From NCBI GenBank assembly GCA_964387145.1, contig CAYLVM010000003.1, forward strand, positions 2,407-66,406: a stretch of DNA of 64,000 nucleotides, given 5' to 3'. The position numbers and the translations under genes are program-made. Under the pieces are notes generated by a model, which was given only the letters and a program-made list of their open reading frames with translations, searched no databases and was not told where the DNA came from. The number at the start of each line of letters is the position of its first letter. Position 1 is the first letter of the stretch. The DNA comes from an uncultured Acidimicrobiaceae bacterium (GTDB taxonomy: Bacteria; Actinomycetota; Acidimicrobiia; Spongiisociales; UBA5794). This document shows positions 4,149 through 45,059 of the stretch, piece after piece.

Positions 4149-4363
4149 GGTGCAGGATGCTAGGGGAACGAAGCGACCAATCAGCTCTCTATCTTGCACA
4201 CATCGGGCGTGATGGCAGAGGCCTCTCGAGACGGTCGGGACCCGGTCGTGGTGACAAGGGAACGGTGGACCCGACAGCGGTTGGAGGATGTCGGCGAGTC
4301 GGTGTCGGTTCTGTTCTCTCACCGAAAGATCGCAGCACCTCGACCTCTTGGTAGGGTTGCTCG

Positions 4364-5695
4364 ATGTCCCCCGATGCACAGGTCTCAGCAACCGACCGCA
4401 CTCCGATGACGGTCACGCGTGCCGTGTCCCTCGGTATCGGTTCGATGGTCGGCGCAGGGATCTTCGCTCTCCTCGGAGAGGTCGGGGCGGTCGCAGGCTC
4501 GGCGGTGTGGCTCGCCTTTGCAGGAGGTGGCATCGTGGCGCTCCTCAACGGGTACTCCTACGGCCGACTCGGAGCACGGTACCCATCTGCGGGTGGCCCT
4601 GTCGACTATCTGACGCGTGGATACGGTGTGGGCGTCTTTGCAGGTGGACTGTCCATCTTCTACTACGCGGCAGGTGTCATCGGCATGGCCATGGTCGCCA
4701 GAACATTCGGCTCGTACGGTGCGGCACTGATCGTCCCGGGCGGATCGTCGACGCTCGTGGCTTCGAGTCTCGCTGCCGTGATCATCGTCGTGCTCACGCT
4801 GCTGAACGCTGCCGGGTCGGCATCAGTCGGGAAGGCCGAGGTCGTGGTCGTAGCGATCAAGCTCTCGATACTCGCCATCTTCGTCGTCGGTGGTGCCTTC
4901 GGAATCAACAAGGTTCTGCTGTCCGGCGAGTTCCTGGTGTCGTCCCCGCTGTCGATGATGGCCGCAGTCGGATTCGCCTTCTTCGCCTACACGGGGTTCG
5001 GGGTCATCACGAACGCTGCCGGTGAGATGGCCCATCCCGAGCGCGAGCTTCCGCGTGCTCTCATGATCGCGATCGGCGTGGTCGTCGTCCTGTACATTTC
5101 GATAGCGCTCGTCGCGTACGGGAGCCTCCCCGTCGCCGAGATCATCAAAGACAAAGAGACCGCTCTTGCAGTGGCCGCAGAGCCCTTCTTCGGTCGGACC
5201 GGGTTCACGATCATGGCGGTCGCAGCGATGCTGTCCACTGCCTCGGCCATCAACGCAGCCCTGTATGGGTCGACGAACGTCACGTACGTGCTCGCCAAGG
5301 AAGGCGAGCTCCCCGAAGGCTTCGATCGCCGGTCCTGGCATCACGCACCGGAAGGACTCTTCATCACAGCAGCGATGGTTCTGGTGCTCGCCACCATCCT
5401 CGATCTTTCCCAGGTGGCGTCTCTCGGTGGCCTCGCCGCGCTCCTCGTGTACGTCGCCGTCGGTGCGGCTCACCTGCGTCTTCGAGGCAAGACGGGCGCA
5501 CACACCTCGATTCTCGTGGTGACCATCGTTGCAACCGCAGGTGTCGCGGTCGCGTTCATCGTGCGGATGGTGACCGACCAACCCATCGTCCTGGTTTTCG
5601 GCGTTCTCGTACTTGGCGCCTCGTTCGGTGGGGAGTGGCTGCTTCGTAAGCGTCTCGGGCGTGTCATCGGCCCCGACCGTTCGATCCTCGACTGA
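4364..5695 (+). CDS. APC-family amino acid permease
   Basis: 443 aa with 12 predicted TM segments and APC-type motifs (SLGIGSMVGAGIF). Confidence 0.8.
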   Translation: MSPDAQVSATDRTPMTVTRAVSLGIGSMVGAGIFALLGEVGAVAGSAVWLAFAGGGIVALLNGYSYGRLGARYPSAGGPVDYLTRGYGVGVFAGGLSIFYYAAGVIGMAMVARTFGSYGAALIVPGGSSTLVASSLAAVIIVVLTLLNAAGSASVGKAEVVVVAIKLSILAIFVVGGAFGINKVLLSGEFLVSSPLSMMAAVGFAFFAYTGFGVITNAAGEMAHPERELPRALMIAIGVVVVLYISIALVAYGSLPVAEIIKDKETALAVAAEPFFGRTGFTIMAVAAMLSTASAINAALYGSTNVTYVLAKEGELPEGFDRRSWHHAPEGLFITAAMVLVLATILDLSQVASLGGLAALLVYVAVGAAHLRLRGKTGAHTSILVVTIVATAGVAVAFIVRMVTDQPIVLVFGVLVLGASFGGEWLLRKRLGRVIGPDRSILD

Positions 5696-5809
5696 TCGGC
5701 TACGGGCATCGAGGTGCCGATACCCCTGTGGGAGACTCGGGAATCCTCACCTTCGAGATCAGTCCATGTCCACGGTGTTTCTGTCATAGGCCGCTGATAC
5801 GTTGGAGGC

Positions 5810-20087: not shown

Positions 20088-20130
20088 GGCGTCGACTCTA
20101 GACGTGCCGCGTCGCGTGCATCCCACGACG

Positions 20131-20197
20131 GTGATCTGTGAACTGTGATCTGTGAACTGTGAACTGTTCCTGTCATCTGTTGTCTATTTCCTGTCGT
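20131..20197. repeat. tandem heptamer array, about 9 units of GAWCTGT (site A)
   Basis: GATCTGT GAACTGT GATCTGT GAACTGT GAACTGT TCCTGT CATCTGT ... in the divergent intergenic region between the LLM oxidoreductase and the small Cys ORF/queG. Confidence 0.7.
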
Positions 20198-20237
20198 ACC
20201 CACCCGATAGCGTGTCACCCATGACCTGGAGGTACGG

Positions 20238-32136: not shown

Positions 32137-32179
32137 CAGACGGCTTTCGGCCTACGGCTTTCGGTCTACGGTTCTCGGC
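32137..32179. repeat. three tandem copies of a 14-nt unit (CTACGGCTTTCGGY) immediately after the fabF stop
   Basis: ACGGCTTTCGG at 32140 and 32154, ACGGTTCTCGG at 32168. Confidence 0.6.
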
Positions 32180-32238
32180 GGAGAATGCCCTGGGGGGTGT
32201 TCGCGTACCGGGCTCGCAGGCTCGCAATCCCCCCTCGC

Positions 32239-32742
32239 TCACTGCGTTCGCTTGTCCCCCCTGAAGGGGGGACGGTCGGGTGTGGTGGGATCGTCTTCGC
32301 CGTCCTCGTCTGGCTGTGAACCGTCGGCTGTGAACTGTGAACCGTCCGGTACCTCACACCCGACTCCCGTCGGCGGCAACCCGGCGTCCACCCGTTCGTT
32401 GTACTCGTCGAAGGAGCGGCTCACGAGCGCAGCGACGATCCCGACGCCAACGAAAGCTGCGATCGCCGTGACGATCCCCGCGATGACCTCCAGGCCGGTA
32501 CAGGTGTTGGGGAGGCAGATCGTCGACACGATGCTCGAGCCGATCAGGCCGCCCGTCATCGCTCCGACGAACACCGTCATGACGATCGCGGGGCGGACGT
32601 TGAAACGGGCCGCACCGTATCCGAATCCGGCACCGAGTACGGCACCGACGGCACCTCCCACAGCACCGAGGAGGAGCCACCCGGTCACCGCTCCGAACAG
32701 AGCGTTGACGGAGATCGAGAGCAGGTCACTCGGACGCATCAT
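32239..32742 (-). CDS. glycine-zipper membrane protein, hypothetical
   Basis: GxxxG-rich TM helices and an acidic C-terminus; the 3' end is encoded through the heptamer array and a palindrome. Confidence 0.5.
   Translation of the reverse strand: MMRPSDLLSISVNALFGAVTGWLLLGAVGGAVGAVLGAGFGYGAARFNVRPAIVMTVFVGAMTGGLIGSSIVSTICLPNTCTGLEVIAGIVTAIAAFVGVGIVAALVSRSFDEYNERVDAGLPPTGVGCEVPDGSQFTADGSQPDEDGEDDPTTPDRPPFRGDKRTQ
32258..32277. terminator. perfect GC palindrome GTCCCCCC-TGAA-GGGGGGAC, candidate bidirectional terminator for convergent fabF and the membrane gene
   Basis: 8-bp G/C stem with a 4-nt loop; lies inside the last codons (PPFRGD) of the minus-strand gene. Confidence 0.4.
32312..32349. 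repeat. tandem heptamer array GGCTGT GAACCGT CGGCTGT GAACTGT GAACCGT (site D)
   Basis: Same CTGTGAAC core as site A; lies in the 3' end of the minus-strand membrane gene, just downstream of fabF. Confidence 0.65.
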
Positions 32743-41473: not shown

Positions 41474-41498
41474 GGTATCTGGTACTTGGTATCTGGTA
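41474..41498. repeat. direct repeat of the 11-mer GGTATCTGGTA (two copies, 3-nt spacer)
   Basis: Starts 6 nt after the stop of the acidic hypothetical gene. Confidence 0.5.
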
Positions 41499-41530
41499 GT
41501 TGGAGGATCAGCGGGTGGGGAGCATCCGTT

Positions 41531-41621
41531 CTCCGTTTACCGACTACCGGCGACTCGCAAGCACCCAGGAACAGTCCGGTTTTCCGACTGTGATCTGTGA
41601 TCTGTGAACTGTCAACTCACC
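41531..41621. repeat. left imperfect inverted repeat (heptamers + TCGGAAAACCGGACTGTTC + GCCGGTA..GGTAAACGG)
   Basis: Reverse complement of 41531..41621 aligns with 42771..42843, with 19/21 identity in the TCGGAAAMCCGGACTGYTC block. Confidence 0.6.
41586..41621. repeat. tandem heptamer array GACTGT GATCTGT GATCTGT GAACTGT CAACTCA (site B)
   Basis: Downstream of the recombinase-like gene; part of the left inverted repeat. Confidence 0.7.
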
Positions 41622-41644
41622 GGCGATCGAGTCACTCAGGTCGC

Positions 41645-42181
41645 TCAGGGAGTGGCGTGGAGTTGGATGATGACGTCGGTGGGGTCGTCGAGTTCTTGTG
41701 CGAGGTCGGTAGGGTCGAGGGATTCGACCGGGGCAGGCTCGACGGTGGGAACGGCGTCGTTGCTCAGCCCATAGGCTCCCTGATACTGATGGACCTTCGC
41801 AACGATGTCGCGCACGATCATCCGGGTGTGATCGTCGGCGGCGTCGCGCAGTGCCTCGAGGTCGTGCTCGTCGGTGGCGATCACCGTCGCACCGGCTTCC
41901 TTGATATCGACGATGATGATCTCCTGGGTCACCACATCGGGGGAGAGGGCAGCGAGGTTTCCCACGACGACGGCATCGACCCGACCGGCACGCACGATGT
42001 CGAGCAGAGCTCTGAGTCCCGGGCGGTCGAACGCCGTGCTCGCCGCTCGATGATCCTGGCACACCACGATGAGTTCATGGCCGGCGTCACGGACCCACCG
42101 TCGTACCCGCTCGCTCTGAGCGAACGCGCTATCCGGGTCTGTGTGCCCTGGGGCCTGCCTGACGTAGCCAGCGATGTTCAC
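41645..42181 (-). CDS. resolvase/serine-recombinase N-terminal-domain-like protein, predicted catalytically inactive
   Basis: Resolvase-fold pattern (VNIAGYVRQ..., DRPGLRALLDIVRAGRVDAVVVGNLAALSPD); the nucleophile Ser is replaced (YVRQA versus YARVS), the D67/R68 equivalents are replaced, and there is no C-terminal HTH; GTG start after a GGAAGG RBS. Confidence 0.55.
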   Translation of the reverse strand: MNIAGYVRQAPGHTDPDSAFAQSERVRRWVRDAGHELIVVCQDHRAASTAFDRPGLRALLDIVRAGRVDAVVVGNLAALSPDVVTQEIIIVDIKEAGATVIATDEHDLEALRDAADDHTRMIVRDIVAKVHQYQGAYGLSNDAVPTVEPAPVESLDPTDLAQELDDPTDVIIQLHATP

Positions 42182-42290
42182 GTGATGCCTTCCTGACCAA
42201 CTCAGTATCGCAGGTGTGCGATGCGCGTTCAATCATCGTCACAGAGTGGTCGGAGATCTTCCCGGGATCGGGTGGTACGCTGGCGCGATC

Positions 42291-42803
42291 GTGGTGCGAA
42301 CACTGGTGCTCAACGCGAGTAACGAGCCGCTGTCGGTGGTTGCGGCTCGACGCGCCATCGTGCTGCTCTACCGTGAGCGTGCCGACCTCGTTGCACGCAG
42401 CAACCGCGTATGGCACGCAGAATCTGTGTCGTTCGCTGTGCCATCGGTCGTCCGCCTTCGCCGCTATGTGCCCGTGCCATACAAGCGATCGATCCCGATC
42501 TCTCGACGGGCGATCTTCCTTCGTGACGACCATAGGTGTCAGTACTGCGGTCGACGAGCAGAGAACATCGATCACGTCATCCCGAAGGTGCAGGGGGGAG
42601 AGCACATCTGGGAGAACGTCGTGGCATCCTGCCAGCGGTGCAACTCTCGTAAGGGGGGACGGACGCCGTTGCAGGCCGGCCTGACACTCATCCGCACGCC
42701 TGTGCGGCCCGGCCGATTCGACTGGGTGTACGTGGCAGCCGGCGGTTACGCCGACGGTACCTGGCAACCGTTCATCGGTTCACAGTTGACCGTTCACAGT
42801 TGA
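42291..42803 (+). CDS. HNH endonuclease (McrA-like small HNH family)
   Basis: RTLVLNASNEPL N-terminus; HNH motif CQYCGRRAENIDHVIPKVQGGEHIWENVVASCQRCNSRKG; start taken at GTG 42291; the last ~10 codons run into the heptamer array. Confidence 0.7.
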   Translation: MVRTLVLNASNEPLSVVAARRAIVLLYRERADLVARSNRVWHAESVSFAVPSVVRLRRYVPVPYKRSIPISRRAIFLRDDHRCQYCGRRAENIDHVIPKVQGGEHIWENVVASCQRCNSRKGGRTPLQAGLTLIRTPVRPGRFDWVYVAAGGYADGTWQPFIGSQLTVHS

Positions 42804-42804
42804 C
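42771..42804. repeat. tandem heptamer array on the opposite strand: TTCACAG TTGACCG TTCACAG TTGACAG TTCACC (site C)
   Basis: Reverse complement of the GAACTGT units; overlaps the last codons of the HNH gene; part of the right inverted repeat. Confidence 0.7.
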
Positions 42805-42843
42805 AGTTCACCCTCGGAAACCCGGACTGCTCACGTGCTGCCG
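42771..42843. repeat. right imperfect inverted repeat partner
   Basis: Heptamers, then TCGGAAACCCGGACTGCTC, then TGCCGGTAAACGG, in the same module-proximal to module-distal order as the left repeat. Confidence 0.6.
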
Positions 42844-42887
42844 GTAAACGGCTGCTTCCTGCCCGCGCTTTCTTGCAGTGCGGATGT

Positions 42888-43400
42888 CTAGCGTACGACG
42901 AGGACCGGGACGACGGAGCGCCGGACGAGCTTGGCTCCCGTCGAGCCGAGGAGGCCCTGGAACGCGCCGTGGCCGTGGGACCCGATGACCACCACGTCGG
43001 CGTCGATCTCGGTGCACAAAGAGATGATGTCCGAAGCGACGTCCTCGCCCTCTCGGACGATGGATTCGACGGTTCCACCGAGTGCGCGGATGGCCTCGGC
43101 AACGGGACGGGCGATCTCGACACGCTTGTTCCCGAGGTACTGCTCGATGACCTTGTCGTCGCCGGGCCACCCCATCGGAGGTGTCGTATCGACGCTGGGC
43201 GAGGTCACATACTCGGCGTCGGAGTCGACGGTGACCCCCGCCTGCTCGCCGTACTGAGTCCGCAGCTCCTGTACCAGACGTCTCGGTATGCGAACGATCG
43301 TCGCAACAGTGGTCTCTCCGTCCGCGCCGGCGAGTGCCATGGCGAACTTCGCTGCCTCATCGATATCAAGGGTTCCGTCGGTGGCGACCAGTACGTGCAT
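42888..43400 (-). CDS. universal stress protein
   Basis: 170 aa; UspA pattern (VLVATDGT...VVVIGSHGHGAFQGLLGSTGAKLVRRSVVPVLVV); GGGAGGA RBS; the long 5' extension in the ORF track is not coding. Confidence 0.8.
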   Translation of the reverse strand: MHVLVATDGTLDIDEAAKFAMALAGADGETTVATIVRIPRRLVQELRTQYGEQAGVTVDSDAEYVTSPSVDTTPPMGWPGDDKVIEQYLGNKRVEIARPVAEAIRALGGTVESIVREGEDVASDIISLCTEIDADVVVIGSHGHGAFQGLLGSTGAKLVRRSVVPVLVVR

Positions 43401-44003: not shown

Positions 44004-44123
44004 CACAGAACCACAACGATGAATCACAGTGGGCTGGCTCGTGGTCAGTCCCCCGGATGCCAATTGGGAGGCCCCTTACTCCGCCCGCTTCCATCTTGGC
44101 GCCAGCGCTCCGGGGGACTGACC

Positions 44124-45059
44124 ATGGATCAGCCCACAGCACACGAACCGGCGTATCACGTCCCGGTCATGGTCAGCGAGGTAGTCGAGTGGTTCGCACC
44201 GGTCTCGTCCGGTTGGATCGTCGATGCGACGTTCGGTGGGGGAGGACACAGTCGTGCTCTCCTCGATGAGTATCCCGATCTTCGCGTTGTGGGCATCGAT
44301 CGTGACCCCGATGCTCTCGCACAAGCAGCGGACCATGATCGTCTCAGACTCGTTTCGGCGAACTACCGTGATCTCCCTTCGATTCTTGGGACGCGTGGCC
44401 TACCCGATCGTGTCGATGGCATCCTTCTCGATCTCGGCGTTTCGTCGCACCAGCTCGATGATCCCGAGCGGGGATTCTCGTACCACCGCGCAGGCCCCCT
44501 CGACATGCGGATGGGAACGGATGTCGACATCACAGCCGGGCAACTCGTCAACACCGCTTCGGCCGGTGAGCTCGAACAGATCATCTCGCGTTACGGTGAA
44601 GAGCGCTTCGCTCGCCGTATCGCCGACGCCATCGTCTCTGAGAGGCCGTTCGGCGACACGACGTCGCTCGCTGGCTGTGTCGCCGAGGCCGTTCCTGCCC
44701 CAGCACGGCGAAGCGGGCACCCCGCTCGAAAGACCTTCCAAGCGCTTCGGATCGCTGTCAACGATGAGCTATCGGGAGTCGAGGCCGTCATGGGGACGGT
44801 CTTTGACTGTCTCACCGTTGGAGGGCGAGTCGTCGTGATGGCGTACCACTCCCTCGAGGATCGCATCGTGAAGCGAGCGATGAAGGAGCGTGCCCGCGGG
44901 TGCGTATGCCCACCGGATCTTCCGATATGTGTCTGTGGCTCGCAACCCGACGTCAGGGTGCTCACCCGAAAGGCAGTTCGACCGTCCCAGGACGAGATCG
45001 AGAGGAACCCCCGAGCGCGAAGCGCTGTGTTGCGCGTCGCTGAAAAGGTGGCACCATGA
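44124..45059 (+). CDS. rsmH: 16S rRNA (cytosine1402-N4)-methyltransferase
   Basis: HVPVM, DATFGGGGHS, DLGVSSHQLD motifs; start at the internal ATG 44124. Confidence 0.9.
   Translation: MDQPTAHEPAYHVPVMVSEVVEWFAPVSSGWIVDATFGGGGHSRALLDEYPDLRVVGIDRDPDALAQAADHDRLRLVSANYRDLPSILGTRGLPDRVDGILLDLGVSSHQLDDPERGFSYHRAGPLDMRMGTDVDITAGQLVNTASAGELEQIISRYGEERFARRIADAIVSERPFGDTTSLAGCVAEAVPAPARRSGHPARKTFQALRIAVNDELSGVEAVMGTVFDCLTVGGRVVVMAYHSLEDRIVKRAMKERARGCVCPPDLPICVCGSQPDVRVLTRKAVRPSQDEIERNPRARSAVLRVAEKVAP

Follow-up and report, generated by a model that had tools for sequence, protein, structure and literature searches.

The stretch analysed here, called the window below, comprises 64,000 nucleotides of contig CAYLVM010000003.1 from an uncultured Acidimicrobiaceae bacterium. 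It carries two divergently transcribed genes, resL, whose product resembles a serine recombinase, and a gene encoding an HNH nuclease, and the 3′ flank of each gene is occupied by a copy of a spacer element containing heptamer arrays, E1 beside resL and E2 beside the HNH gene (Table 1). The original prediction, made from the letters of this region, treated the genes and their flanks as one module, bounded by terminal inverted repeats and placed in an accessory gap between two core blocks. It was suggested to be a transposable or invertible element, possibly in decay, a homing-type HNH unit, or a two-gene system using the repeats as protein-binding sites.

Table 1. Coordinates of genes, spacer elements and motifs in the window.
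Feature	Position	Strand	Description
resL	41645..42181	-	178 aa; serine-recombinase catalytic domain only, catalytically dead, disordered acidic tail; Pfam PF00239, 1.8e-13
HNH nuclease gene	42291..42803	+	small N-terminal beta domain and intact CxxC..DH..N..CxxCN HNH domain
E1 (left arm)	41480..41622	-	spacer element copy beside resL
E1 heptamer array	41587-41617	-	first in minus-strand reading
E1 core TCGGAAAACCGGACTG	41572-41587	-	
E1 GCCGGTA and degenerate GGTAAAC units	41531-41551	-	
E1 end motif GCTCCCCACCCGC	41511-41523	-	
E2 (right arm)	42778..42890	+	fills the entire HNH/usp spacer
E2 array	42778-42811	+	
E2 core TCGGAAACCCGGACTG	42814-42829	+	
E2 GCCGGTAAACGG	from 42840	+	
E2 degenerate end motif GCTTCCTGCCCGC	42854-42866	+	
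GGTATCT/GGTACTT heptamer (14-mer) array	41474..41503	.	borders on the stop codon of the 323-aa gene lying upstream; Tandem Repeats Finder period 14, 93% matches
GTTCACA/GATCACA array	20122..20165	-	degenerate units to about 20200; between two divergently oriented open reading frames; no core or end motif
GTTCACA-type array	32314..32343	-	within a composite spacer
WCGGYYT heptamer array	32140-32179		same composite spacer as the 32314..32343 array
G6/C6 hairpin repeat	32200-32275	-	composite spacer with the 32314..32343 array
Divergent control region	42182..42290	.	109-bp resL/HNH spacer; motif-based
resL promoter-like TTGAAC-17-GATACT	42204-42232	-	motif match
resL ribosome-binding site AGGAAGG	42188-42194	-	motif match
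HNH extended -10-like TGGTACGCT	42273-42281	+	about 8-9 nt before the start codon

The two 3′ flanks are indeed homologous and mutually inverted, with their features lying where they had been placed. The inverted-repeat arms (41569–41617 and 42784–42832) are 49 nt each and 84% complementary, with a perfect core of 14 nt, and when the left flank is reverse-complemented and aligned with gaps to the right one, the match continues through TCGGAAAMCCGGACTGYTC, GCCGGTA and AACGG.TGCT.CC..CCCGC. The homology is not limited to the heptamers: after removal of the arrays the best local alignment of the flanks scores 30, compared with 14.2 ± 2.3 for dinucleotide shuffles, of which none in 1000 reaches 30. 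The inverted orientation of E1 and E2 is explained by their placement: the two genes diverge, and past the stop codon of each lies one element with its array foremost. No direct repeat that could be a target-site duplication was seen by eye at the outer ends of the repeats, and the element ends are not sharply defined.

For comparison we used resL loci from a scan of one genome per species, which yielded 71 loci, nearly all from the Acidimicrobiia or unclassified Actinomycetota. Four copies of the element align at full length: E1, E2, E3 from locus L197, where the resL DNA is 99% identical to that of the window, and E4, situated after the HNH gene at locus L022 of a sister metagenome-assembled genome (MAG). 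Their common layout is (GWTCACA)n, a TCGGAARACCGG core, GCCGG(TGAACGG)m and GCTCCCCAYCCGC..GATC; in simplified form, the element is about 110–140 nt long and consists of (GTTCACA)n, the TCGGAAAMCCGG core, (GGTGAAC)m and GCTCCCCAYCCGC. Since GTTCACC and GGTGAAC are reverse complements, the element itself is palindromic, and E1 and E2 are decayed palindromes. With a profile built from these copies, full-length members were obtained only in the species complex of the window and at L022. The unrelated locus L014 (15380–15470) has one that is nearly full-length, and elsewhere the matches comprise the array only. The 11-mer core has a match at only one of the 71 loci, L019. The block (GGTAYYT)n-GGAGGATCAGCGGRTRGGG, to which the window array at 41474–41503 belongs, recurs as well, in the HNH/usp spacer of L202 and, reverse-complemented, in L201.

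The spacer elements differ even between very close relatives. In the window and L197, resL is identical at 532 of 537 positions and the 333 nt upstream of it at 330, and the homology ends at the stop codon. The L197 spacer past this codon contains the element in the opposite orientation, identical at 87 of 115 positions (76%), and at least 11 heptamer units lie beside resL there, compared with about four in the window. An identity of only 76% indicates element replacement rather than a simple flip. A strain that is 89% identical (L199/L200) has a GTACCAA array directly past the resL stop codon, and after the HNH gene of L199 there is no GTTCACA element and the end is different and contains a hairpin. 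In the sister MAG the resL-side copy (L019) is inverted relative to that of the window, so that the L019 and L022 copies are direct repeats. The median lengths of the two spacers over the 71 loci are 51 and 63 nt, and arrays are present in 7/34 and 3/25 cases. Finally, eight of nine independent contigs end inside an array just downstream of resL, which is explained by the breaking of short-read assemblies at repeated or length-variable sequence. At the strain level the elements thus come and go and change in orientation, number of units and sequence, and the genes remain in place.

Arrays of this kind are not specific to the resL locus. The GTTCACA-type pattern has ten overlapping matches at four loci of the window, the expectation being 0.07, and two of these loci (20122–20165 and 32314–32343) are distant from the gene pair. 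The array at 20127–20200, with GTGATCT/GTGAACT units decaying into GTTCCT, GTCATCT and GTTGTCT, lies between divergent open reading frames (ORFs), hence the arrays are not confined to 3′ ends. Period-7 arrays, identified with arbitrary thresholds, are more numerous in the 0.83 Mb of related loci than arrays of any other period from 4 to 15. There are 27 of them in 76 kb of spacers and two in 357 kb of conserved coding sequence (0.35 and 0.006 per kb, an approximately 60-fold difference), and the spacer counts for periods 6, 8 and 9 are 3, 10 and 1. Heptamer arrays are therefore concentrated in spacers throughout the lineage. The units vary (GTCTACC, CAGCTCT, GTCAGAC, CTGTCTG, TCGTCTT, CTGTGAG, GTACCAA and others), and the arrays often form inverted pairs yielding very stable hairpins, with folding z-scores of −5.0 to −6.0 at L022, L007, L071 and L014. 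We found no report of heptamer repeats in the Acidimicrobiia in the literature. In Rfam there is no match reaching the gathering threshold anywhere in the window, and in the surroundings of the locus none of relevance at E≤1.

Another dispersed spacer repeat, GTCCCCCCTTCAGGGGGGAC-AAGCGAACGCAGTGAGCGAGGGGGG-..TGCGAGCCTGCGAGCC, corresponds to the G6/C6 hairpin repeat of Table 1 and is seen also in L201 (two copies at about 4160–4300) and L202 (about 5620–5780). In these relatives it occupies the spacers flanking resL and the HNH gene. Its match in Rfam, to whalefall-1, is weak and lies below the threshold (E 0.009).

We now turn to the genes. The profile search against Pfam proposed with the original prediction identifies the resL product as a Resolvase domain. 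The family has 81 homologues of 168–225 aa, nearly all of 168–205 aa with this single domain. The AlphaFold2 model (pLDDT 80) has a beta-alpha core and a long helix at residues 118–137, as in the catalytic domains of serine recombinases, and residues 138–178 form a low-confidence acidic tail with one short helix. All 47 Foldseek matches of the model at E≤1e-3 are serine recombinases, among them IS607 TnpA, TP901-1, phiC31, Bxb1, Sin and gamma-delta. The recombinase pocket is partly retained (R8, the Gln, D36-like and R45-like residues), and 25 aligned members keep R8, the Gln of FAQSER, QD, RPG and the DAVVV strand. On the other hand, the position of the nucleophilic serine of Y-x-R-x-S, assigned by offsets in the Pfam and TP901-1 matches, is occupied by alanine in the window (YVRQA) and by A, S, T, I, G or P among the 25 homologues, that is, it is unconstrained. 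The D-R-x-x-R cluster, D67/R68/R71 in the gamma-delta numbering, is replaced in the family by a conserved LxALSPD motif. There is no helix-turn-helix (HTH), no second Pfam domain and no DNA-binding domain in the tail of the model. Hence the claim that the protein is unable to act as a serine recombinase holds, both the catalytic residues and the HTH being lost.

ResL is a conserved pseudo-enzyme and not a decaying recombinase: a presumably domesticated serine-recombinase catalytic domain that has neither the nucleophile nor the D67/R68/R71 cluster nor a DNA-binding domain, and its family is a candidate example of recombinase domestication. It matches no defence family in PADLOC, no relatives were found on viral contigs, and we found no paper describing an inactive stand-alone resolvase domain. 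In a sequence search of the Protein Data Bank (PDB), the top matches, to designed TIM barrels and to RecA, were judged spurious, being short or inflated by repeats. Residues 61–83 (DIVRAGRVDAVVVGNLAALSPDV, 23 residues, VDxxVVxxxAALxP) resemble residues 106–128 of RecA in the matched PDB chains; as tandem RecA fusions in the PDB inflate the score, this likeness is probably due to chance or convergence.

The partner, described as a nuclease, does have an intact HNH motif. Pfam assigns the protein to HNH (1.8e-13) and HNH_5 (3.1e-13), and C83, C86, D94, H95, N109, C114, C117 and N118 are invariant among 40 sequences. The domain is closest to the HNH domains of Cas9d, IscB and McrA, those of Cas9d and IscB being the best matches in both sequence and structure, and no solved structure matched the N-terminal beta domain. 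Its matches in PADLOC are confined to generic models of HNH proteins, PtuB and PDC-M01B among them. The protein has 2356 homologues at E≤1e-10, and the identity is still 60% at rank 120 of these. Since they are about 30 times as numerous as the resL homologues, the HNH gene also occurs without resL. The last eight codons of the window gene (GSQLTVHS) are encoded by the right heptamer array, and members of the family normally end with W.PF[LI].

Synteny and spacers were defined by tblastn with nine conserved window proteins, the spacers being those between these nine genes. A GC3-based gene finder was tried for the window and dropped, as it selected antisense frames, one of them over resL. With a few exceptions, the genes at the 71 loci follow the order ftsI-rsmH-mraZ-usp-HNH-resL-323aa-moxR-duf58 as far as the contigs extend. 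In the recovered loci resL is situated between the MoxR-DUF58 operon and usp/mraZ and is usually divergent from the HNH gene. As the pair belongs to this conserved order, its placement in an accessory gap was wrong. Dcw-side genes are absent at four loci (L052, L055, L057, L060), and the HNH gene alone is absent beside resL at ten (L002, L004, L007, L008, L009, L012, L013, L014, L016, L020), which form one clade and where usp ends 76–86 nt before resL. Hence resL does not need an adjacent HNH gene.

None of the 71 loci has the two-gene segment flipped, and in all four assemblies that have an identical resL and include the HNH side the gene order is as in the window. No second copy of the pair was found in any genome examined. 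Where a MAG seems to contain duplicates, these are the two parts of a single locus or else copies of the entire region, dcw genes included, and such copies indicate mixed bins. The dN/dS values between the window and three relatives are 0.11–0.26 for resL and 0.08–0.13 for the HNH gene, and by this measure both genes are under purifying selection. resL and the HNH gene form a fixed chromosomal pair in the Acidimicrobiia and have the features of resident, expressed genes. Two loci have a resL that is flipped on its own with respect to all the surrounding genes (L017, 7971–8504; L038, 7439–7801), and in L017 the 323-aa gene, resL and the HNH gene lie on one strand. The flipped genes are bordered only by weak heptamer-containing inverted repeats (19 nt, 74%).

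Spacers between the two genes were compared in 51 loci. The TTGAYN-17-NATACT box together with the AGGAAGG ribosome-binding site precedes resL in 39 of them, and the TGGTACGCT-type box precedes the HNH start codon in 46. The two genes thus seem each to be preceded by a conserved promoter-like motif, and the distance of about 8 nt between the box and the start codon suggests that the HNH transcript may be leaderless. The motif GACCACTC(A/T)G, at 42240–42251 on the minus strand of the window, is present in 31 of the 51 spacers, in many loci twice, about 21 nt apart, and one copy overlaps the −35 box of resL (TTGACCACTCA). It could be an operator for some regulator.

Taken together, the data make it probable that the locus combines a fixed gene pair of the Acidimicrobiia with two diverged copies of an unrelated family of non-coding spacer elements. 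The arrays would grow by replication slippage, and the palindromic arms may be kept or decay through template switching at hairpins. Copies could move between spacers by recombination or by some trans-acting enzyme, and young, well-paired copies may form hairpins without a U-tract at the 3′ ends of convergent transcripts. Several observations weigh against this description. The window has only two full-length copies, so that a high copy number is an extrapolation. A scan of metagenomes with the core 16-mer TCGGAAAMCCGGACTG gave at least 120 matches, and those listed are bare 16–18-mers except for a longer one (L126), which lies in apparently coding, unrelated sequence; we attribute these matches to chance. 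No transposase, no terminal-repeat or target-duplication signature and no RAYT-type gene was identified, RAYT genes not having been searched for. The folds of E1 and E2 on both strands are no better than those of shuffled sequences (z about 0), and neither element contains a consensus intrinsic terminator, that is, a GC-rich stem followed by a T run. The elements of L197 and L019 likewise fold no better than shuffles, and a scan with promoter and terminator consensuses yielded nothing within the elements.

These last results bear on the possibility that E1 and E2 are not selfish or neutral repeats but functional cis elements maintained by selection, namely bidirectional terminators or stabilisers of the 3′ ends of convergent transcripts. 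The copies begin at stop codons or at most about 30 nt from them in convergent spacers, and relatives have palindromic versions of great stability in the corresponding positions. However, a terminator role of the window copies is unsupported, as no intrinsic terminator is present there and they fold like shuffles, most relatives manage with array-less spacers of 50–60 nt, and arrays occur also in divergent, promoter-side spacers. We consider this function unlikely. A two-gene system whose proteins bind the repeats, as suggested originally, or cut them, the repeats serving as its cis sites, is a good deal less probable. The pair is conserved, in most loci divergent, the HNH motif is intact, ResL retains a partial recombinase pocket and the long helix, and arrays cluster around the locus in many relatives; but the specific repeats are not conserved along with the genes, and binding of both proteins to them is unlikely precisely because the proteins are conserved while the repeats are not. 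Moreover, heptamer arrays with many different units are found also in the mraZ/usp and 323aa/moxR spacers and at unrelated loci, and the two genes are partly independent of each other, as seen from the ten loci with resL and no adjacent HNH gene and from the 30-fold excess of HNH homologues.

That the 1.2-kb segment is an invertible switch, the gene pair being flipped by recombination between the inverted flanks, seems very improbable. The flanks do bracket the segment as inverted repeats, the resL-side element is opposite in a near-identical strain, and resL alone is flipped at two loci. Still, the two-gene segment is flipped in none of the contigs and loci compared, and what does flip is the spacer element, whose 76% identity points to replacement. 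No active recombinase is encoded nearby, and the longest perfect match of the arms, 14 nt, is short for homologous recombination, which usually requires a minimum of 20–30 bp. The reading of the genes and flanks as a transposable element, active or decaying, with the flanks as its terminal inverted repeats, is hardly tenable, even though the inverted repeat is real, its homology continues past the heptamers, and a gene of the recombinase fold lies inside. The position and order of the genes are fixed across a whole class and both are under purifying selection; the nucleophile and the DNA-binding domain are missing from the entire resL family; and the repeats are absent from most relatives carrying the genes, in direct orientation in the sister MAG and reversed in the strain with 99% identical resL DNA. 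No second copy of the pair was seen in any genome, the apparent duplicates being whole-region ones from mixed bins. The same synteny and selection, together with the absence of resL relatives from viral contigs, speak against an element in decay and against a homing unit of the HNH type, and mobility is further opposed by the change of orientation and sequence of the repeats between near-identical strains and by the additional arrays elsewhere in the window.

One more possibility links the genes with the repeats. ResL and the HNH protein may form a recombinase-derived housekeeping system that recognises and nicks heptamer palindromes capable of forming hairpins or cruciforms, ResL serving as a structure-binding scaffold and the HNH protein as the nuclease. 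Co-location is what speaks for it, and we regard it as quite improbable. If it were true, the pair would drive or police the turnover of spacer elements at the strain level, and the heptamer palindromes would be a new kind of non-autonomous mobile DNA in the Acidimicrobiia.

An observation apart from this locus concerns the mraZ-rsmH spacer (44029–44137, plus strand), which contains a long hairpin (−73.6 kcal/mol, z = −6.4). Its 3′ arm holds a Shine-Dalgarno-like GGGGGA and the rsmH start codon. The hairpin is almost invariant across 13 loci of the Acidimicrobiia, with compensatory changes in 9 of 39 pairs. No Rfam family corresponds to it, only weak matches to models of miRNA-precursor hairpins being obtained; Rfam includes an actinobacterial mraW motif. 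The apical loop contains CCGCCCG, the heptamer found in 16S rRNA around C1402, and this identity suggests that the hairpin may mediate autoregulation by substrate mimicry. C1402 of 16S rRNA is the base methylated by RsmH (PMC2831307).

Returning to resL and its flanks, the preference for a fixed gene pair beside unrelated spacer elements has several consequences. It disposes of a false lead: where intergenic repeats are abundant, a gene of the recombinase fold bracketed by an inverted repeat is not sufficient grounds for calling a mobile element. It also documents heptamer-based, often palindromic spacer repeats in marine and hydrothermal Acidimicrobiia, which turn over faster than genes diverge by 1% and break short-read assemblies at gene ends. 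Finally, it identifies a small, class-restricted family of dead serine-recombinase domains kept under selection beside the cell-division cluster.

The HNH protein shares with IscB/Cas9d, McrA-type and homing HNH nucleases the zinc-binding CxxC...CxxC core and the intact catalytic His and Asn, but it is found outside any intron, intein or phage context, and it is a stand-alone protein of 160–190 aa with its own N-terminal beta domain, encoded at a syntenic position. With the small serine recombinases, such as the gamma-delta/Tn3 resolvases and Hin/Gin/Pin, ResL shares the fold of the catalytic domain and the long E helix, and like hin in Hin-type segments its gene lies between inverted repeats. 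It differs from them in the variable position of the serine, in having LxALSPD in place of D67/R68/R71 and no HTH, in its fixed place, and in its repeats not being conserved.

Heptameric simple sequence repeats (SSRs) are over-represented in the intergenic DNA of bacteria and vary between close relatives (PMC4692102; see also PMC4679880). They occur as inverted pairs, and polymerase slippage has been proposed as their cause (PMC4692102). The former paper cites a survey of 2007 and the Calothrix repeats (PMC4692102), and the TAACTGA repeats of the Beggiatoaceae are described in the latter (PMC4679880). The arrays considered here resemble such repeats (Calothrix/Nostoc STRR, Xanthomonas GGGAATC, Beggiatoaceae TAACTGA) in having tandem 7-nt units with an intergenic bias, many loci per genome, varying length and sequence at the same gene boundaries, and occasional inverted pairs capable of forming stem-loops. 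In contrast to them, no single heptamer dominates in the Acidimicrobiia, where the units have many sequences and do not form G-quadruplexes, the arrays lie inside a longer element with a unique core and an end motif, and the host class is a high-GC actinobacterial one. In comparison with the REP/BIME (REPIN) elements, the arms here are made of tandem heptamers, the copy number comes from 64 kb, and a RAYT transposase was neither identified nor searched for. In other respects they are alike: both are short imperfect palindromes situated after genes in either orientation, modular or mosaic in structure, variable between strains and breaking assemblies, and by this analogy REP/BIME would be the nearest functional counterpart of the spacer elements.

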